A DNA stretch of 28,738 nt, taken from the IMG/VR virus record IMGVR_UViG_3300038318_000066, positions 1 through 28,738 of that record, one strand, 5' to 3'. A program made the translations under genes and the position numbers. Under the pieces are notes generated by a model. It was given only the letters and a program-made list of their open reading frames with translations, did not search any database and was not told the DNA's origin. Shown one piece after another: positions 181 through 16,599 of the stretch (position 1 is its first letter; the number at the start of each line of letters is the position of its first letter). The stretch comes from a virus (taxonomy: Duplodnaviria > Caudoviricetes).

Positions 181-489
181 ATGGGATTGTATGGTTCGCC
201 AGATACAGGGAATTTATACACAGAAGAAAAACCGATAAAGAAGAAAAGAAAGTTGAAATTCAATGTACAGGCTGTAGTTTTAATAATTCTATATCTGATA
301 ATGCTTTGGGCGGCAGAGGATAAGTATTATATGACAATATCTTATATTGGTGTAATGTCGATTGTTTATTTTTTAGTTTATTTTATTAAGATGATAATTA
401 AATTATTTAGAAAAGAAAGCGTTAATAGTGAGGTAATACGGCTATTAATTGCCACTGGCTTGATTATAATATGTTTGGTTTTAAGTTGA
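181..489 (+). CDS. Small membrane protein (moron-like)
   Basis: 102 aa with three hydrophobic segments; RBS AGGGGTG; possible own promoter (TTGTAA-17-TATTAT, 121-149) and own terminator. Confidence 0.7.
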   Translation: MGLYGSPDTGNLYTEEKPIKKKRKLKFNVQAVVLIILYLIMLWAAEDKYYMTISYIGVMSIVYFLVYFIKMIIKLFRKESVNSEVIRLLIATGLIIICLVLS

Positions 490-504
490 AAATATAAAAA
501 ATAG

Positions 505-535
505 CAAAAGCATCTATAAAATAGGTGCTTTTTTT
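505..535 (+). terminator. Rho-independent terminator
   Basis: AAAAGCATCTAT-aaa-ATAGGTGCTTTT followed by a T tract. Confidence 0.8.
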
Positions 536-545
536 AATGCCTCAA

Positions 546-586
546 AAGGAGGTGGATATATGGCTAAGAGTAAGCCCACTAATTAG
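546..586 (+). pseudogene. Vestigial original 5' end of the tape measure gene (MAKSKPTN*)
   Basis: Strong RBS AAAGGAGGTG, then ATG GCT AAG AGT AA at 560, which parallels MSKSN at 1721. It stops after 8 codons at the cassette edge. Confidence 0.6.
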
Positions 587-746
587 AAGTAGGCTTTTGA
601 TACTCTTTTAAAACCAATTCAATCCCTCTATCAAGTAACTTAGACATAGGTATCATTGTTTGCTCTGACAACTCTTTCAGTTTTAAGAAAAGTTGGGCGT
701 CTACAGCATTTGAAATTGGAGTTCTGTTTTTTAAACCTCTACTCAC
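579..746 (-). CDS. Ribbon-helix-helix DNA-binding protein (55 aa; missing from the ORF track)
   Basis: GTG start with RBS GAGGTG; MSRGLKNRTPISNAVDAQLFLKLKELSEQTMIPMSKLLDRGIELVLKEYQKPTSN shows an RHH pattern. Confidence 0.8.
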   Translation of the reverse strand: MSRGLKNRTPISNAVDAQLFLKLKELSEQTMIPMSKLLDRGIELVLKEYQKPTSN

Positions 747-787
747 ATTTATCACCTCAACTTTATTATAATATATATTGTTAATAC

Positions 788-816
788 TTGCAACTACAAG
801 TAGTTAATGGTATAAT
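788..816 (+). promoter_or_regulatory. SigA-type promoter of the endonuclease gene with a palindromic operator
   Basis: TTGCAA-17-TATAAT; palindrome AACTAC-aa-GTAGTT (792-805) overlaps the -35 box and spacer; lies in the divergent RHH/endonuclease intergenic region. Confidence 0.65.
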
Positions 817-836: not shown

Positions 837-1679
837 ATGGAATATAGAAAAGAATTGATGGAAAATAAAATGGTGGTATATGCTATCATTAATAAAATAA
901 ACAATAAAAAATATATAGGAATTACAACTAATTCATTTGCTGAAAGATACCCTCATGGAATAAGGGCGCACCATAACCCGCATTTAAAAAAGTCGGTTAA
1001 TAAATACGGGCAAGATAATTTTAAAGTTACATTACTCGAAAAGAATGTAGAAGATATGAAAACCTTATGCAAATTGGAAATGAAATATATAGAAGAATAT
1101 GATACTTGCAATAAAGATAAAGGATATAATAAGTCTTTGGGCGGATATGGTGTACGACAAACGGAGAGAAGTAAAGAACATTGCAAGAACCTTAGTAGAG
1201 CTAAAAAAGGCATTAATCCATTGGCGAGTTATACACCTGAACAAATGGCAACAAGAAATGCAAAAATAAGCAAAGCATTTAAAGGCAAAAATAATCCTAG
1301 ATACGGAATGACAAAAGACAAATTGGAGCCTGAGACATTAGAAAAATTAAGACAAGCCTCTTTAGGTAAAAATAATCCTATGTATGGTAAAAATATTAAA
1401 GATTATATGACAGAAGAAGCATATGATGAATGGAAGAAAAATGTAGCTCGAAAGGGAAAAGAAAACGGTAGAGCGAGAGAAACTGTAATAATTTATAAGA
1501 ACAAAAAATATAAATTTGATTATGCACAAGAGGGGATAAATTACTTTAAGGGCAAAGGCGAATTCATAACAAGAAGTTGGTTTTATCGAGGTGTTAACGA
1601 TAATTATAAACATATATTTCAATTTGTAGGGTATATAGAAGATTATAAAAAATTCACAGAAAATGAAATTGCTATCTAA
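837..1679 (+). CDS. Free-standing GIY-YIG homing endonuclease with NUMOD3-type repeats
   Basis: VVYAIINKINNKKYIGIT...R...E.KYI...GYN catalytic domain; repeats KISKAFKGKNNPRYG and KLRQASLGKNNPMYG; RBS AAGGAG. Confidence 0.9.
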   Translation: MEYRKELMENKMVVYAIINKINNKKYIGITTNSFAERYPHGIRAHHNPHLKKSVNKYGQDNFKVTLLEKNVEDMKTLCKLEMKYIEEYDTCNKDKGYNKSLGGYGVRQTERSKEHCKNLSRAKKGINPLASYTPEQMATRNAKISKAFKGKNNPRYGMTKDKLEPETLEKLRQASLGKNNPMYGKNIKDYMTEEAYDEWKKNVARKGKENGRARETVIIYKNKKYKFDYAQEGINYFKGKGEFITRSWFYRGVNDNYKHIFQFVGYIEDYKKFTENEIAI

Positions 1680-1694
1680 AAGGATAGCTTTTTT
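1671..1694 (+). terminator. Rho-independent terminator after the endonuclease gene
   Basis: GCTATCT-aaaa-GGATAGC-TTTTTT. Confidence 0.7.
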
Positions 1695-1720
1695 ATTTGG
1701 AAAGAGGGTGGTTTTGCACT

Positions 1721-4160
1721 ATGAGTAAATCTAACTTTATAGTGCGCTGAAAACCGTGGTGGAGCGGATTTTAGTGGAATATCAAGAGAAATCAATAAGA
1801 CCCAAAAACGATTAAAAGGTTTCAAAAATAATATAAATGGTACTTTTAAAACAATAGGCAAACTAACAGGATTAGCAATTGGAGCAAAGGCTCTTGTGGA
1901 TTTTGGAAAACAATCAATTCAAGTAGCATCGGACTTGACCGAAGTACAGAACGTAGTAGACGTAACTTTTGGATCTATGGCCAAAGAGGTCAATGAATTT
2001 GCAAGTTCAGCCACTAAAGAATTTGGTTTATCGGAACTATCGGCGAAGAAATTTACATCTACAATGGGAGCAATGCTAAAGAGTTCTGGTATATCTGGAA
2101 CACAGGCTAAAGATATGTCTATAGAGGTAGCAAAGCTTACTGCAGACATGGCCAGCTTTTATAATTTAGATCATGATGAAGCATTTCAAAAAATACAGTC
2201 CGGTATAAGCGGTGAAACGGAGCCTTTAAAACGTCTTGGTATTAATATGAACGTGGCTAACCTGGAAGCTTACAATTTATCGCAGGGAATAACTAAAGCT
2301 TGGAAAGACATGACGCAAGCAGAGCAGGTGCTAACGAGATATAATTACCTGATGCATGTATCTGCTGACGCACAAGGAGATTTTGCAAGAAACACAGGAA
2401 CATGGGCGAATCAAACTAAATTACTAAAAGAGCAATGGCAAGAGTTCATGGGACTGATAGGAAACGCCATTATTGAGGTCTTATTACCATTTGTAAAAGC
2501 TCTTAATAAAGTCTTGGAAATAGTAAATAAAGTATTGCATAAGATAGGCGAATTATATTCTGCAATAACTGGCAAGAATCTTGTAGCTGAATCTAACAGT
2601 GCAATAACAGATACAGCAGATGAAGCTGCAGATTCCGAAGTAGATCTTTCTAAGGGTATAGACAAAGCTTCTAAAGCCGCAAAACGAGCACTAGCACCAT
2701 TTGATGAACTTAATGTACTTCAAGGAGGTTTAGCCAATGGTGACGGACTAGGTGGAAGCGGATTAAATGTTGGTTCTATTGGAGGACTGACAAGTGATAT
2801 ATCCGAAGCAGGAAGCGGAGTAAAAGGACTTAAAAAGGAGTTTGAGGACTTCTTTTTTATATTGGATAATTTTGATAAAAGGGGTTTCTTTAAGGAGCTG
2901 GTAAAGGCTCCCGAAGTTGAACAAGCTACGGTTCCGGTTTTAGATGATAAGGAATTTCAAACTTCAAAGCAGAGATATTTAACACCTGTTCCGGCACCGT
3001 CTTTTTCTCCTGCATTTGCTCCAAGAATGGCATTAGAACAATACTTACAATCTAAAAGTCAGTATCAAGAAACTGTAAAGGCTCCCGAAGTTGAACAAGC
3101 TACGGTTCCGGTTTTAGATGCAGAGACGTATTTTGTACCTTCTTTGGAGGGTGCCAAATTAAGCTATTTGTTAGCAAAAGAATACATCAAAGCCATAACG
3201 GTTCCTATTGTGATTCCGTCTATCGATACAGAAACCTATTTTACTCCTTCTTTGGAAAATACTAAATTGAACTATCAAACGGCGATAGAGTATATAAGGG
3301 GTATAACGGCCCCTACGCTTTTACCCGTGGGGATAGCTTTTGCCACTTTGTTTAGCGGAATTTCAACAAATGCTGCTGAATGGAAGCAAAATTTAATAAT
3401 GCAGTTTGGTGAATTAGTTACAAATATTTCCTTTAACGCAGGACAGTTAAAGGAAGCGGTGGTGCAAAATATAGCAGAGTGGACAACATCAACGCAGGCA
3501 TCTATAAGTAAATGGGGAATAGCTGTAGCGGCGGCAGGTTTAGCAGCGGCGACAAATTTCACTTATAATTTTAATGAAGCGTTAAACACAACCGCAAATA
3601 ACATTTCTGATTGGATTAATACTACGAGCGGAAATATCGCAGAGTGGGGAAGAGGTATGCTATCGACGGCTGCAGAAACAGCAAGAGGCATAGTAAAGAA
3701 TATTTCAGGTGGACTTGAAACAGCGTGGATGAATTTTAAGAACGCTTTATCTGCTATGGGAGAAAAAATTAAAGGCAGTTTCCGACCAAATTACGGCATA
3801 AGTACAGTTGAGACTATAGGCATTACAACTTCGATAGTAGGAAATATGTTTAAAGCTATGTCGGGGAATTTTAAAACTTTAGGAGTGCCCGGTTTAGCCA
3901 CAGGAGCCGTAATCCCGCCAAACAGTGAATTCTTGGCTGTCCTTGGAGACCAGAAATCCGGAACGAACATAGAAACGCCGGAACGATTGCTAAGACAGAT
4001 TGTAAGAGAAGAACTTGGGGACGCAGGGCGATATCAAATGCCTGACACGCAAATAAATATGTATTTAGATGATGATATTATAGGCAGAGCTGTAGTCGCG
4101 TGGATAGATAAACAAGTTGCTCGTTCGGGCGAATTGCCATTTTCATTAGGAGAGCTCTAA
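1721..4160 (+). CDS. Tail tape measure protein; 5' end interrupted by a 10-nt insert with a stop (809 aa if bypassed)
   Basis: Typical TMP motifs (ASDLTEVQNVVDVTFG, DMASFYN, SGISGETEPLKRLGI, LATGAVIPPNSEFLAVLGDQ). RBS + ATG at 1721 gives MSKSNFIVR*, and the long frame reads RGGADFSG... from 1755. The ORF track starts at an internal GTG (1896). Confidence 0.85.
2901..3120 (+). repeat. Perfect 46-bp direct repeat inside the TMP gene
   Basis: GTAAAGGCTCCCGAAGTTGAACAAGCTACGGTTCCGGTTTTAGATG at 2901-2946 and 3075-3120 (VKAPEVEQATVPVLD twice). Confidence 0.95.
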
Positions 4161-10962: not shown

Positions 10963-11226
10963 TTTTCTTACCTGCCTTATATTCATTTTCGTACCAGTTT
11001 AAAAAATCACCGTATAGCTTTTCTTCGGCAGTTTTTCGTGCTTTTATAGCATCATCTTTTTTATCAAATCGTCCTAAGAAGTATTTTTTGCCTTGAAATT
11101 CTATACGAGCAACATATTTTTTCCATTGTAATCGACGGTTGTTTTAATCATTTCATAATTGTCATTATCGTGGAAATTCAAAAATACAGTATTTCCACCA
11201 TTATAATTAGTAATTATTTTTTTCAT
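10937..11226 (-). pseudogene. Out-of-frame fusion: short ORF (MKKIITNYNGG..., 11226-11101) joined to a headless AP2-domain remnant
   Basis: A second frame reads WKKYVARIEFQGKKYFLGRFDKKDDAIKARKTAEEKLYG (AP2-type DNA-binding motif) with no start codon. Confidence 0.65.
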
Positions 11227-11277
11227 TTTTTCTCCTTTTTTCCCGGTTTTATGGTTGACCGGGAAACCAAATTTTTT

Positions 11278-11514
11278 CTAGTAAATAAGTTCGAGCCTAT
11301 CTTCATAAGCTTCATTCATATACCAGTTCACAATGTCATCGGGTCCAGTGCTGTCTTTTTCATACAGCTCCATGAAGTTTTCAAGCTGTGCGTCTGTCAG
11401 TTCAAATTTGTCTGCGTTTACTCCCATCTCTCTGTGGACTACCCACATGATGTGACCTTTCAATGTGATGTGGTCTATTCCCATAGTAGTTGGTGTGATT
11501 TGAATTGCTTTCAT
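11278..11514 (-). CDS. Hypothetical early protein (78 aa)
   Basis: RBS AAGGAGG, ATG at 11514 (MKAIQITPTT...); the longer ORF-track start overlaps the upstream gene. Confidence 0.7.
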   Translation of the reverse strand: MKAIQITPTTMGIDHITLKGHIMWVVHREMGVNADKFELTDAQLENFMELYEKDSTGPDDIVNWYMNEAYEDRLELIY

Positions 11515-11566
11515 TATATCCTCCTTATTCTCCCGGCTTTGTTGGTAGCTGGGGACCATATTTTTT

Positions 11567-12244
11567 CTACCAAGTATGTTGTCTGGTTTTCTTTGCCGTA
11601 CCATCCGGCATTGCATATAGATGGACGATATCGGTACTGCATTCTTCGCTTGGATCGTTGCAATCATCTGTCCAGTGTGAAAGCTCTTGAGGCTTTCCGG
11701 TTTTCTTTGCTGTTGCGAATATCTCTGCAACTCTTTTTTCTTCTTTTTTTTCTCTTTCAACCTTTGCTGCTGCCTTTGCTTCATTGATTGGGTTTACATA
11801 TTCACAAGCCTCTTGGTATGTGAATTCATGTCCCAGTATTTCTTCTGCTTCATCTTTCAATTTCGTAGTGTATCCAACTTCTCTTGTCAATCCTAACTCT
11901 CCAAGAAGTTCTCTTTCAACCTTTCCCGATACATTCCAAGTTGGAAATCCGTCATGGTCTTTGTATATGAGTTCGAATTTCTTTTCACCACTCAGATATG
12001 CTCTTCTGAGTTCTTTTTCTTCTTTTGCTGCCTTCGCTTCTTCTTCTGCTATTTTTCTGTCCTGTTTTTCTTTTATTCTTTTTACTTCCTCGAGTATTTC
12101 TGGTTTATTTTCTTTGATTTCTTTGTCTATAGCTGGGGTAATTCCCTTTGGGGAATGTACTTCCAAACCTTCAACGCCGTTTCTAACTCCGTACCTGATA
12201 CTGAATTTTTTAATCAATTCGTTTACTCTTGCTTCTCCTAACAT
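11567..12244 (-). CDS. Hypothetical early protein (225 aa)
   Basis: RBS GGAGG, ATG at 12244; first gene after a consensus promoter. Confidence 0.75.
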   Translation of the reverse strand: MLGEARVNELIKKFSIRYGVRNGVEGLEVHSPKGITPAIDKEIKENKPEILEEVKRIKEKQDRKIAEEEAKAAKEEKELRRAYLSGEKKFELIYKDHDGFPTWNVSGKVERELLGELGLTREVGYTTKLKDEAEEILGHEFTYQEACEYVNPINEAKAAAKVEREKKEEKRVAEIFATAKKTGKPQELSHWTDDCNDPSEECSTDIVHLYAMPDGTAKKTRQHTW

Positions 12245-12275
12245 TTTATTTCCTCCATGTTTTATTTTATGATTC

Positions 12276-12304
12276 ATTATACCACGGTCGACCGTGTATG
12301 TCAA
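12276..12304 (-). promoter_or_regulatory. Consensus SigA promoter with a 14-bp palindromic spacer
   Basis: Minus strand TTGACA-17-TATAAT; the spacer contains CACGGTCGACCGTG (12283-12296); upstream A tracts. Confidence 0.9.
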
Positions 12305-12423
12305 TACCTTTTTTAAAGTTTTTTTAAATTATTTTTTTTGTTGGGATTGCAAGGACTGTAGTAATTATATAAATTTACAGGGCAGCCGGTCATTATACCG
12401 TAAACTCTTTCACCGTTACTGAA

Positions 12424-12475
12424 AACTTATAAAAAGTTATAAATATATGTTGACTTTTATAACTTTTTATAAGTT
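12424..12475. repeat. Perfect 20-bp inverted repeat (operator-like)
   Basis: AACTTATAAAAAGTTATAAA (12424-12443) and TTTATAACTTTTTATAAGTT (12456-12475) flank a TTGACT hexamer. Confidence 0.85.
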
Positions 12476-12512
12476 ATTTTTAACAGTCAATTACCCTCTT
12501 CAAAAAATTTAT

Positions 12513-12694
12513 CTGAAAATATTCAGCAAAAACTATTGACATACTGAATTAAATCAGTATAATATAATTATAGCTGAAATAATTCAGCAAATCAAAAGGA
12601 CTTCCTGAATACTTTCTATATAATATGTGGTGAGATACTATTATAATAGATTATTTTCAGTGAATTGTCAATAAATTTTGCTGAATTATTTCAA
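12513..12694. promoter_or_regulatory. Lysis-lysogeny-type switch: six CTGAA-N4-TTCAG-like operators and convergent promoters
   Basis: Operators at 12513, 12544, 12574, 12605, 12647 and 12681; rightward TTGACA-16-TATAAT (12536-12563); leftward TTGACA-17-TATTAT (12671-12643). Confidence 0.8.
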
Positions 12695-12746
12695 CAAAAC
12701 TATATTTTTTATTCGACAAAATGTCAGAAAGGAGTGCAATGGATTA

Positions 12747-12932
12747 ATGAATGAATTTGAAAAGGCAGTAAGAAAGGCATTAATTGACAAGGATATGAAG
12801 CTTACTGACTTGGCTGATGCTATTGGAATAAGTCTAACTTATTTATATGACATTCTTAATGGTAACAGAAAAGCAGAGCATCAGAAGAAAAAAATTATTG
12901 AAATTCTTGAACTTCAAGAAGATTTTGATTAA
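12747..12932 (+). CDS. Cro-like HTH regulator
   Basis: MNEFEKAVRKALIDKDMKLTDLADAIGISLTYLYDILNGNR; first rightward gene after the operators. Confidence 0.85.
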   Translation: MNEFEKAVRKALIDKDMKLTDLADAIGISLTYLYDILNGNRKAEHQKKKIIEILELQEDFD

Positions 12933-12956
12933 GAAAGGAGAAGTGAAAAATGAGTT

Positions 12957-13310
12957 TTGCAGATAGATAATCTAAAAGAAGAAATAGCAATCTGTAAAAT
13001 TGTAGTAAAAGAACTTGCTGTACTGGTAAAGAAATATGAAAAGCAGGTTGATAAAGAAAAAGAGAAAGAGAAAAAACTACAACGGTATGAAGATTTGGAA
13101 CAGGCGCGGGAAGCTTATGGATTTGGAGAAATTACAAAACAGGAATTTGAAAAATTGCAAGATTACTTTGATTGCAAGGAACAAAACAAAACTGTAAAAG
13201 AATTGTATTTACAATACATAGAGAAGGAATACAGGCTTGAAAAGAAGAACTTATCAGATTTGGAAAAAGAGTTGTTTAAAGAAGAGTTAGTAAGTATTGC
13301 AAGAAGTTAA
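12957..13310 (+). CDS. Hypothetical coiled-coil protein (start damaged or uncertain)
   Basis: The RBS is positioned for ATG 12950 (MSFADR*), which is out of frame with this TTG-started ORF. Confidence 0.55.
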   Translation: MQIDNLKEEIAICKIVVKELAVLVKKYEKQVDKEKEKEKKLQRYEDLEQAREAYGFGEITKQEFEKLQDYFDCKEQNKTVKELYLQYIEKEYRLEKKNLSDLEKELFKEELVSIARS

Positions 13311-13328
13311 GAGAATAGGAGGCACAGT

Positions 13329-13517
13329 ATGAAATTTAGCGCAGCGAAATTTAAAAAGGATAAACGGTTCAGAAGATTACTGGACGATAAGCACCTTGAA
13401 GCGCTTGACGGTCGTGAGGTTATAGACGAACAGATTGATTACGAAGTTGACGGTAAAGAGTTTTATATATACCCGGTTGTACCGGAGTGGTGTGAGGAGG
13501 CACAGGATGGAGATTGA
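13329..13517 (+). CDS. Hypothetical protein
   Basis: RBS AGGAGG; 62 aa. Confidence 0.7.
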   Translation: MKFSAAKFKKDKRFRRLLDDKHLEALDGREVIDEQIDYEVDGKEFYIYPVVPEWCEEAQDGD

Positions 13518-13776
13518 AAAAGCAATAAAGTTATTAAAAGCGGATAAAGATTTAATTAGTAGAAAAGTTACAAGACATACTTTTTACGAATATGAAGAAG
13601 CAGTCCAAGCACTTGAAAAACAGATACCATATCAACCATCAGAAATTGATTGTGTAAATGAAGAAAACAACATTTTAGATGGATATTGTAAGTGTAATAA
13701 ATTAGTAGATTCACGAATGAAATATTGTCGTTTGTGCGGTCAAAAATTAGACTGGGAGGTAGAAACGGATGAATGA
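13507..13776 (+). CDS. Phage zinc-ribbon protein
   Basis: RBS GAGGAGG, ATG 13507; ALEKQIP...CKC...YCRLCGQKLDW. Confidence 0.75.
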   Translation: MEIEKAIKLLKADKDLISRKVTRHTFYEYEEAVQALEKQIPYQPSEIDCVNEENNILDGYCKCNKLVDSRMKYCRLCGQKLDWEVETDE

Positions 13777-14146
13777 TATAGAAAAGCTAATTGAATATAT
13801 AAAAGACCACAGCAATAATTATTTAGGTTCAAAGGCAACATTAAAAGAAATAGAAATCTTTGAATATATGTATGATTTGCTTATTGGAACACTTGAAAAA
13901 CAATTAAACGGTGGTTGGATTCCTGTAGACGAAAACCCGCCGTTGACAATCGAAGAACTAAAGCAGATGAACTATCAACCGATATGGATACAAAATATTA
14001 ATTCTGAAATTGGTTTAGATGGTTGGGGGATTTTCAGAGCAGCACAAGTTAAGCAGATAGCAAATTGCCAATGCGAAGCAAATATAAGCTATTATATGAA
14101 GGATTACGGTAGAAAATGGCTTGCTTACAGGAGGAAACCAAATTGA
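13769..14146 (+). CDS. Hypothetical phage protein (probably chimeric)
   Basis: LEKQLNGGWIPVDE joined to NPPLTIEELKQM...YGRKWLAYRRKP. Confidence 0.65.
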   Translation: MNDIEKLIEYIKDHSNNYLGSKATLKEIEIFEYMYDLLIGTLEKQLNGGWIPVDENPPLTIEELKQMNYQPIWIQNINSEIGLDGWGIFRAAQVKQIANCQCEANISYYMKDYGRKWLAYRRKPN

Positions 14147-14256
14147 TTAAGGGATTTTGGGACAAGCTTACAGATGATCAGGAGTACATAAGACTTAAAT
14201 TAGGACTAGCTTTGGTATTGATAATCATAGGGATGATGCTGGATGGGAGGATGTAA
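14143..14256 (+). CDS. Small single-TM protein (37 aa; missing from the ORF track)
   Basis: RBS AGGAGG, TTG start; MIKGFWDKLTDDQEYIRLKLGLALVLIIIGMMLDGRM. Confidence 0.55.
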   Translation: MIKGFWDKLTDDQEYIRLKLGLALVLIIIGMMLDGRM

Positions 14257-14258
14257 AA

Positions 14259-14510
14259 TTGAAAAGACATGCTAACGAATTTTTAAGGACAAGTTCTGGC
14301 AGATTAGCTGGCTCCGGAATGAACGAAGATAGATATGATGATGAATCAATGCCATCAGGATCTACATATTCTGGTCAGCCTATACTTACAAAAGAATATG
14401 TAGACTACATGAAAAAAATAGAAGAAGAACAACCTGTTACAACTTACAAATTAACTAAAGAGGAAATGGAAGAATATTTAAAGAAATTTAAAAAAGGAGT
14501 GATTTCATGA
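14259..14510 (+). CDS. Hypothetical protein
   Basis: RBS GGAGG; 83 aa; coupled to its neighbours. Confidence 0.65.
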   Translation: MKRHANEFLRTSSGRLAGSGMNEDRYDDESMPSGSTYSGQPILTKEYVDYMKKIEEEQPVTTYKLTKEEMEEYLKKFKKGVIS

Positions 14511-14632
14511 ATGTAGCTGAAGCTATACCCTATAAAAACTATAAGGAAAAATTTGCAATAGTGATGCAAGAATTAATGAAAAACAGATATGTAGAAGTTT
14601 GGGACAGGCATATTTATTCAGCTAAAAAATAG
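14507..14632 (+). CDS. Small hypothetical protein (41 aa; missing from the ORF track)
   Basis: RBS AAGGAG, ATGA overlap; MNVAEAIPYKNYKEKFAIVMQELMKNRYVEVWDRHIYSAKK. Confidence 0.55.
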   Translation: MNVAEAIPYKNYKEKFAIVMQELMKNRYVEVWDRHIYSAKK

Positions 14633-14641
14633 GAGGTAAAC

Positions 14642-15004
14642 ATGGAAAAACAATGCCGAACGTGTGTGTTTAACACAAAAAAAGAAAGTTGTAAGATTTT
14701 AGTCGAAAGAATCGAAAAAGATTGTTGGGCTTGGGCGGACGAGGTGGAATATCAGAGACGAAAAACTGACATTGAAGCATATAAAACAAGATTTGATGTT
14801 GATTTATCTAAATTTGAAACAATTCGTGAAAAGCTTGATGGTAGTTTCGTAGATTTATATGAAGAAGGTTTAAGCGATATAAAAATAGCAAAGATATTGA
14901 AATTAAATCATAACACTGTCGGAAATTATAGAAGAAAGTTAGGACTAAAAACGCAAAGAGAAAGAAAAAAAGAGCCTGCGGCAACAGGAACGGCACAAAA
15001 ATAA
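14642..15004 (+). CDS. Cys-rich N-terminus + C-terminal HTH protein
   Basis: CRTC...C...C followed by LYEEGLSDIKIAKILKLNHNTVGNYRRKLGL. Confidence 0.75.
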   Translation: MEKQCRTCVFNTKKESCKILVERIEKDCWAWADEVEYQRRKTDIEAYKTRFDVDLSKFETIREKLDGSFVDLYEEGLSDIKIAKILKLNHNTVGNYRRKLGLKTQRERKKEPAATGTAQK

Positions 15005-15633: not shown

Positions 15634-16113
15634 ATGAACTTATACGAATTAACAGGAGCTTACCTGAAACTACAGAATTTGATTGAATCAGGAGAAGTAA
15701 CAGAGGATGATATCGAATCTATAAGCGATACAATCGACATTAAGGCAGAAAATTATGCCAAGGTTATAAAGAACCAAGAGGGCAATATAAATGCCCTTAA
15801 AACTGAAATAAACAGGCTTACGGATAAGAAAAAGTCTATAGAAAATAATATTGACCGTATGAAAGAAAGCCTTAAAGATTCCATGATTACGACAGGCAAG
15901 GAAAGAATTAAGACAGATTTATTTAATATCAGTGTGGCGAATAATCCACCAGCCTTAAAAATTACCAATGAAAGTATAATACCTAAATCATATTTTACAA
16001 CTGAAACTATTAAAAAATTGGACAAAGCGAGATTAAAAGAAGATTTAAAAACAGGGAATATATTTGTCAATGGCGCGGAATTAACAGCAGGAAAGAGGTT
16101 GAGGATTAAATGA
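15634..16113 (+). CDS. Siphovirus Gp157-family protein
   Basis: MNLYELT...KAENYAKVIKN.E.....LK.EI.RL..KKK...KIKT.LF...V.NNPP...LDK..LK..LK.G..V.GAEL. Confidence 0.9.
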   Translation: MNLYELTGAYLKLQNLIESGEVTEDDIESISDTIDIKAENYAKVIKNQEGNINALKTEINRLTDKKKSIENNIDRMKESLKDSMITTGKERIKTDLFNISVANNPPALKITNESIIPKSYFTTETIKKLDKARLKEDLKTGNIFVNGAELTAGKRLRIK

Positions 16114-16599
16114 GCAAAGCATTACTTTTAATGGGCGAATCAGGAAGTGGCAAAACTACCTCTATGAGAAATTTAGATCCTAAAGAAACGTATTATATCG
16201 ACTGTGATAAAGATGAGGCGGAGCAAAGAAAAGGGCTATGACAAGTGGATAGACCTTGCGCAGTGCATCTGGGATTTAGTGGACCATGCTTACGCTTTTA
16301 GGGATGATTTAACTTTAATATTCCTAGCACATACCCAAACAGAAAGAGATGAGACTGGATATACATTTACTAAGGTTAAAACATCTGGTAGGAAGCTAGA
16401 TAAGATTTGTTTAGAAAGTAAATTTAGCATTGTATTAGTCGCTAAAAAAAGTGGTGATAGATACATATTTGAGACACAAGCAAATAATAGCACTGCTAAA
16501 TCACCTATGGGAATGTTCACAGAATTAGAGGTTGAAAATGATATTACAAAAATTATAGAAGCTATGGAGGAAAATATAAATGATGAACTTAACAATTAA
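16110..16599 (+). pseudogene. AAA-type (Sak4-like) phage ATPase with an internal deletion and frameshift
   Basis: MSKALLLMGESGSGKTTSMRNLDPKETYYIDCDK (Walker A) stops at 16241; the C-terminal half (MRRSKEKGYDKW...AHTQ...AKSPMGMF) is in another frame; the Walker B segment is absent. Confidence 0.8.

Follow-up and report, generated by a model that had tools for sequence, protein, structure and literature searches.

How a phage might make its tape measure protein (TMP) when the gene is stopped, and then thrown out of frame, after nine codons is the question raised by the DNA analyzed here. The window, as we call the whole stretch of 28,738 nucleotides, comprises positions 1 to 28,738 of the IMG/VR virus record IMGVR_UViG_3300038318_000066 (Caudoviricetes), and its TMP gene lies on the + strand. 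By our reading of the sequence, the RBS-like GAGGGTGGT at 1704-1712 (Shine-Dalgarno [SD] energy, -7.8 kcal/mol) precedes ATG 1721, the start of a 9-codon mini-ORF whose last codon, CGC (1745-47), stands directly before TGA (1748-50); RBS and mini-ORF together occupy 1704..1747. The coding gap of 10 nt that follows (1748..1757) is made up of this stop, AAAC (1751-54), and the putative landing codon, CGT (1755-57), after which the resumed TMP frame extends over 1758..4160. This +1 frame has no stop between 1743 and 4160, and its first ATG, GTG, or TTG is GTG1896. The long frame encodes a TMP (PHROG 1535, E 2e-88), and a hop over the gap is predicted to yield a product of 809 aa. An earlier note had described this layout of insert and frames at 1721-1757, with the 809-aa product and GTG1896 as the first start, and had proposed that ribosomes hop from CGC to CGT; the layout is borne out by the sequence.

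We could rule out an assembly error as the origin of the 10 nt. Two Logan contigs from run X1, spanning 1293-1771 and 1742-2600, carry the insert with 0 differences at a depth of 12-13, as a read check proposed with the original observation would have it; X1 is the probable source sample and hence no independent sample. The accompanying prediction, that homologues would read NFIVRGGADF without a break, held as well. Six of seven homologous loci read M-x-K-S/N-N-F-I-V-R-G-G-x-D uninterrupted, and alignment to homologues left a surplus of exactly 10 bases at the window site. The seventh locus, L005, has a different break, of +1.

The insert stands at the end of a cassette that runs, in order, through a ribbon-helix-helix gene, a GIY-YIG endonuclease, a new RBS, and a replacement TMP 5′ end. 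Upstream of it lies a stub of the recipient's native TMP start (509..571, + strand), with a terminator-like hairpin, an AGGAGG RBS, and ATG560; the cassette truncated this start after 4 codons, leaving the stub at 560-568. A contig from run X5 matches the window over 400-568 and then continues into an intact SNFIVRGGLD, and the same upstream context as that of the window stub is found ahead of intact TMP starts in L003 and L007. The ribbon-helix-helix gene (579..746, - strand; Pfam RHH_3, E 3e-16) is divergent from the endonuclease gene; a similar reverse-strand ORF was seen by eye in L009, and none is present in L005. Overlapping divergent sigma-70-like promoters, recognized by consensus only, lie at 765..816 (+ strand, 788-816; - strand, 793-765), each with 10/12 consensus matches. 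The endonuclease itself (837..1679, + strand) is free-standing, intact, and 280 aa long, with Pfam GIY-YIG and NUMOD3 domains and a match to the PHROG 314 homing endonucleases (E 4e-26). Its residues Y26-I27-G28, R37, E81, and N98 are invariant across 58 homologues, and R37, E81, and N98 are putative catalytic residues by analogy with I-TevI. An intrinsic-terminator-like hairpin with a T-run (1671..1696, + strand) separates the endonuclease from the TMP RBS; the terminator scan found 2 over both strands, against 0.4 expected in shuffles. The cassette has promoter-like sites, terminator-like sites, and an RBS of its own.

A sibling, L001, lacks the nuclease and has an intact TMP start, and its 99% identity to the window begins at about 1788-1801. 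Because L001 is without the nuclease and is 99% identical only downstream (from 1788), the cassette evidently supplied the new RBS and about the first 25 TMP codons, and codons of the resumed frame are cassette derived to ~1801. The element has the traits of a free-standing GIY-YIG cassette, namely an intact domain with NUMOD repeats, optional presence, and co-conversion of its flank. An Rfam search of 400-2200 gave no match to a group I, group II, or other intron family and returned two weak snoRNA/leader matches below threshold. Among cultured phages, 19 of 50,697 records matched the nuclease, all at <60% identity and thus none a close homologue, and a sequence search of the PDB with the nuclease alignment gave no match.

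Several features of neighboring and more distant DNA were recorded along the way. Between the tail chaperones and the TMP gene, at window positions 181-489 and in the same slot in L001-L007, lies a gene for a variable membrane protein whose N-terminal MGLYGSPD motif is constant; this gene is inverted in L006. L009 has a second GIY-YIG-like ORF (L009:22-1005) upstream of its tail assembly chaperone genes. The TMP gene contains an exact direct repeat of 46 nt (2901-2946 and 3075-3120), common to the window and L001. At about 10970-14960 several blocks of the window are missing from the sibling record G402, including ORFs without a Pfam match (for example, 11170-11787 and 11784-12272). The claim that the core genes are intact stands for the core tail, lysis, and replication genes, which look whole, but a Sak4-like gene (16109-16599) has a frameshifting deletion of 172 nt relative to G402 and is the one pseudogene of the window. 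This deletion lies just before ~16590, where the match to G402 stops; the window continues with an exonuclease/SSB/Pol A replication module.

We then looked across related loci. Searching with the nuclease alignment yielded 17 loci of ≥70% nuclease identity, 3 of which end within the nuclease; all of the 14 that reach the TMP start are broken there. Motif and nuclease scans together returned at least 319 sequences, which reduce to at least 50 distinct TMP 5′ ends (34 intact and 16 broken). One of the motif scans gave at least 120 loci, and 40 of the listed 120 have short flanks. Among the matches listed, the nuclease is present at 12 of the 16 broken ends and at 0 of the 34 intact ones (Fisher p 1.5e-8 for these matches, a value that is overstated, the alleles being related). 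By eye, three of the four broken ends without the nuclease keep its last codons, and the fourth has only 111 nt of flank; breaks thus outlast loss of the nuclease. A motif scan of 401 genomes matched 12, and among the 11 matches listed only the known L112 was a TMP start; a further viral scan gave 5 contigs, none new to the set. In L126 (1-1300) an IS200/IS605-like element, with HNH/IscB-like and TnpA-like ORFs as judged by eye, replaces most of the nuclease; the nuclease 3′ remnant and a +6 break are retained. A contig of run X8, with a cassette-like 3′ end over window positions 1648-1699 at a depth of 710, stops just beyond the ATG, before the gap, and was excluded from the counts. Of the RNA runs consulted, X5 gave contigs that leave the gap uncovered, and X9 gave no match to the window.

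Six intact/broken pairs have near-identical TMP genes downstream of the break (window/L001, L009/L012, L005/L014, L112/L119, L103/L262, and L102/L307), and a single TMP background bears +1, +5, and +6 cassettes. A shared downstream TMP in such pairs is the pattern expected from homing with short co-conversion. That the nuclease would cut the cassette-free allele and spare its own is something that we infer solely from the 14/14 and 0/34 pattern.

The breaks cluster at codons 9-12 and form an allelic series, so that the search for relatives sharing the insert, suggested in the earlier note, did find breaks at the same spot, but with sizes that vary from 1 to 10 nt. In one class, inserts of +4, +6, +7, +8, or +10, mostly with UGA first, lie between two CGN (Arg) codons. 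The +10 alleles are those of the window (CGC to CGT), L009 (CGG to CGT), and L099 (CGC to CGC). L138 has a +7 insert (CGG to CGG), L091 and L092 have in-frame +6 inserts (CGG-TGA-CGT), and L015, L090, L106, and L112 have +4 inserts (CGA-A-CGY), with ACG rather than a stop as the A-site codon. A +8 allele (CGC to CGC) was read in the loose end of a contig, X7, from another study; gaps of 4, 6, 7, and 10 nt make up 10 of the 11 Arg-class alleles. The +5 allele of L102, close to a contig end, has no CGN landing codon. A second class consists of five +1 alleles with GCC-TGA-C three codons later, behind an SD-like AGR-GGN-GGN and with no matched landing codon; a loose end from run X3 shows this form as well. 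Downstream of its break, the TMP frame of L138 stops after about 165 codons and is followed by a different GIY-YIG-like ORF (L138:1905-2819), possibly marking an intron in the TMP gene. Within the 111 nt that precede the TMP ATG in L274, a +1 allele, sequence just before the RBS resembles the 3′ end of a group II intron.

CGC and CGT are both decoded by tRNA-Arg ICG, so the window's codons for take-off and landing are read by one tRNA, as originally pointed out, and a slow A-site codon, TGA, follows the take-off codon. Such same-tRNA matching does not extend to all relatives. The codons for take-off and landing are identical in L099, L138, and X7, but 7 of the 11 Arg-class alleles match by wobble only (CGG to CGT in 3 and CGA to CGY in 4), and separate ACG, TCG, and CCG tRNAs are encoded in the MAG to which L112 belongs; the +1 class is unmatched. 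Matched flanking codons are also a product of small tandem duplication. TGA follows the take-off codon in 7 of 11 Arg-class alleles, the window's among them, and in 5/5 +1 alleles, and all 12 stops in this position are TGA, the least used stop, which terminates 2 of the 13 window genes counted. Reassignment of TGA is unsupported, given that it ends these genes and that the +6 TMP frames are open under table 11 (633 codons).

RNA folding predictions gave a second feature that the broken alleles have in common. In the window, predicted hairpin 1 (1716..1745, + strand) pairs the spacer and AUG with codons 5-9 and ends on the take-off codon's first base. Pairing of the spacer and AUG with codons 6-10 is predicted in 16/16 broken alleles among the matches listed; the hairpin reaches, or runs towards, the take-off codon, with compensatory changes, and in the Arg class the stem ends at that codon or adjoining it. 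For the same listed matches, the AUG has a pairing probability of ≥0.98 in 14 of 16 broken alleles, the remaining two being at 0.57 and 0.82, versus 0.00-0.81 in the 34 intact ones, and the minimum free energy is lower in broken than in intact alleles (p 1.5e-7, again overstated by the relatedness of alleles). In an ungapped alignment of 10 alleles, 95% of cells were paired, double changes numbered 9, and one pair shows all four Watson-Crick forms; this count took in 10 of 13 sequences, with L094, L106, and L138 left out for differences in loop length or register. The covariation score was reached by 0/500 shuffles, and slid registers gave 29-64%; hairpin 1 was derived from the tested sequences themselves, and one control thereby leans its way. 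When arms were swapped among 12 haplotypes, an analysis that spans all 16 broken alleles with the L094/L274 register shifted by 3, own-allele pairing was 29/36 versus 16.3 when permuted. The conserved RNA structure near the take-off codon is thus the covarying hairpin 1, for which a stimulatory role is proposed. Hairpin-assisted initiation just 3′ of the stem was rejected on inspection, the long frame having no start codon there.

Predicted hairpin 2 (1746..1775, + strand) encloses the stop and the landing codon and resembles a take-off stem-loop. Its region, 1695-1790, has a z score of -2.19, and similar folds are predicted for the other two +10 alleles and 4/5 of the +1 alleles. An alternative, longer fold (1708-1756, + strand) pairs the 3′ part of the insert with the RBS spacer and leaves 1746-49 bulged.

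If ribosomes simply terminated at UGA, re-initiation or fresh initiation at an internal start such as GTG1896 would produce an N-terminally shortened TMP. The burial of the AUG in a predicted hairpin would suit this explanation, as does the presence in every broken allele of an in-frame ATG, GTG, or TTG at native codons 21-56 (21, 39, 53, 56). These positions differ among alleles, however, and they are no closer than in intact alleles; their SD energies are weak, at 0 to -5.6 versus -7.8 to -12 at the AUG. Both the mini-ORF and the codons from the gap to the internal start are also conserved as protein. Since the motif scans select for KSNFIVR codons, we counted conservation on the 12 nuclease-bearing alleles alone: all 7 KSNFIVR codons vary synonymously, with one K-to-R change, and the residues D, F, S, and I beyond the gap are invariant. 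In phage 80alpha, three TMP copies are described as joining the tail completion protein in a sheet through their N-termini (10.1101/2024.12.10.627806), and by analogy only, such a sheet may be why an N-terminal strand is needed. On balance, we regard an internal start as unlikely.

Slightly less likely still is that the breaks are scars of self-cutting and repair, and that cassette phages, being defective, depend on a co-infecting relative for TMP. Several inserts do resemble short duplications, the intact sibling allele turns up in runs X2 and X3, both from the same study, and the Sak4-like pseudogene of the window and the TMP frame of L138, ending near a GIY-YIG gene, would be in keeping with decay. 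The TMP frames are nevertheless long (counted from the Asp codon, 797 codons in the window and in its sibling), with differences that are mostly synonymous in 7/7 pairs; the breaks persist once the nuclease is lost, and random scars would not always set TGA beside a covarying hairpin.

The window allele might instead be read by an RF2-like +1 frameshift at UGA, with three added residues and no 10-nt hop, the +1 frame being open through the insert. For the five related alleles of net +1 at GCC-UGA-C a +1 shift is the best reading, and a shifty stop is the better account of that class: with SD-like purines, a P-site codon, and then UGA-C, it resembles the RF2 site in layout, although GCC, unlike CUU, is poor at +1 re-pairing. 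In the window, CGC would be unable to re-pair at GCU. Landing codons occur in all three frames, the +6 and +8 alleles landing in frames other than +1, and in L009 the landing frame contains a TAA immediately ahead of CGT; because this TAA blocks the landing frame, a plain +1 slip at the L009 UGA is excluded. Three-frame landing and the L009 TAA favor a slide with codon re-pairing rather than a fixed +1 slip, which we judge improbable for the window. In the in-frame +6 alleles, UGA may instead be read through. Removal of the insert from the RNA, as a micro-intron or by cutting and ligation at a bulged hairpin, is the least probable explanation, in spite of the predicted fold with bulged 1746-49 and of spliced nuclease introns known from TMP genes (PMC10055350), for 400-2200 matched no Rfam intron family and gaps of 1-10 nt with differing folds would offer no common substrate.

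The proposed ribosomal hop is strongly supported by these comparisons. The best explanation, to which we assign a probability of about 0.7, is that the 10 nt end a GIY-YIG cassette that replaced the TMP start, that they likely shield the gene from the nuclease, and that ribosomes likely hop over them. The earlier note had thus proposed a reading that comparison backs but had overlooked the nuclease cassette and the covarying AUG hairpin; limiting TMP yield, which it gave as a further effect of the hop, is unsupported as a purpose, and shielding is likelier. In the mechanism that we propose, the targets of the nuclease would be intact TMP genes, cut near codons 8-15, into which the cassette would be copied by repair. 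The protein motif at these codons is nearly invariant, so the gene would be unable to drift away from the nuclease site, and any insert of 1-10 nt would spoil the site or its spacing. A ribosome translating the cassette allele would stall with UGA in its A site and peptidyl-tRNA-Arg paired to CGC; the peptidyl-tRNA would let go of its codon, and the ribosome would slide 10 nt, re-pair at CGU, and resume translation. Even infrequent hopping would be enough, since few TMP copies (three in phage 80alpha) go into a tail.

Hairpin 1 might zip up behind the ribosome, hide the AUG against loading of a trailing ribosome, or both, and its role may be merely to thin out initiation. A pushing role is uncertain because the predicted hairpin overlaps the take-off codon, with its loop starting about 18 nt upstream, whereas the 5′ stem-loop of T4 is placed 26 nt upstream (10.1101/2024.12.09.627546). 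More tentatively, at somewhat short of even odds, a start-burying hairpin that ends near a weak P-site codon, 9-12 codons on, may be what drives short jumps into all frames.

The system appears to work like the T4 mobA/gene 60 element, reportedly the subject of Bonocora 2011, without belonging to that family. Both have a free-standing nuclease upstream, a cassette that gives the target a new N-terminus, and an insert in a conserved coding stretch that is retained after nuclease loss; both have a take-off codon, a stop, and a wobble-matched landing codon, with stem-loops at and 5′ of the take-off codon. The T4 insert blocks MobA nicking and travels with MobA, and the T4-type homologues all lie in topoisomerase genes, the authors knowing of no similar bypassing in other phages (10.1101/2022.08.31.505936). 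Here the target is the TMP gene rather than that for a type II topoisomerase large subunit, and the nuclease is GIY-YIG/NUMOD3 where MobA is HNH; the two systems have no sequence homology. The gap is 10 nt in the window and 1-10 nt at one variable site across the series, versus 50 nt in T4, and lacks a G-rich mini-SD; the nascent chain, from a 9-codon ORF1, has 9 residues (9-12 in the series), versus 46. The 5′ hairpin here holds the start codon and covaries, whereas that of T4 is reported not to be conserved between clades. In T4, stem-loops folding behind the ribosome are described as promoting sliding, which trailing ribosomes impair (PMC11194080). The window is known from sequence, and T4 gene 60 is its bench-studied counterpart.

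Streptomyces phage phiHau3 offers another parallel, a frame-breaking insert of 10 nt in an essential virion-assembly gene that is absent from relatives. Its UUA-led terminase bypass has been followed by junction mass spectrometry in E. coli, and a 5′ stem-loop and SD are proposed as stimulators (PMC10732093). There a hungry UUA is the trigger and the proposed role is regulatory, whereas the inserts here start with TGA or ACG, are mostly UGA led, and are nuclease borne; the word "homing" is absent from the main text of the phiHau3 paper. The +6 alleles, with matched codons around a stop, resemble synthetic stop hops, in which 9 nt are read for one residue, and a 2016 review knew of no natural in-frame case (PMC5009743). 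Interruption of TMP genes by nucleases in the form of introns is common (PMC10055350). A literature search, which covered few subscription papers, found no report of bypassing in a TMP gene or of this cassette.

Programmed bypassing in bacteria has so far rested on T4 gene 60, its topoisomerase homologues, and phiHau3, and published accounts describe as open both how the T4 gap arose and what powers sliding. The TMP locus offers, in <60 nt at one site, a natural allelic series of a putative +1 shift, a stop hop in frame, and hops of 4-10 nt, which could test whether pairing of the exiting mRNA, or exclusion of trailing ribosomes, suffices to drive a hop. TMP genes of this kind will be annotated as pseudogenes or with truncated starts. 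If the start-burying hairpin does act as a single module, jumps of 1, 4, 5, 6, 7, 8, or 10 nt would proceed without a nascent-peptide signal, the +6 alleles would be the first natural in-frame stop hop, and +1 frameshifting and bypassing would be one continuum at one site. Homing endonucleases would then have a tunable means of destroying their own target within an essential gene while the protein stays unchanged, and the locus shows a possible route by which a free-standing nuclease may enter an invariant coding motif with neither an intron nor an intein.
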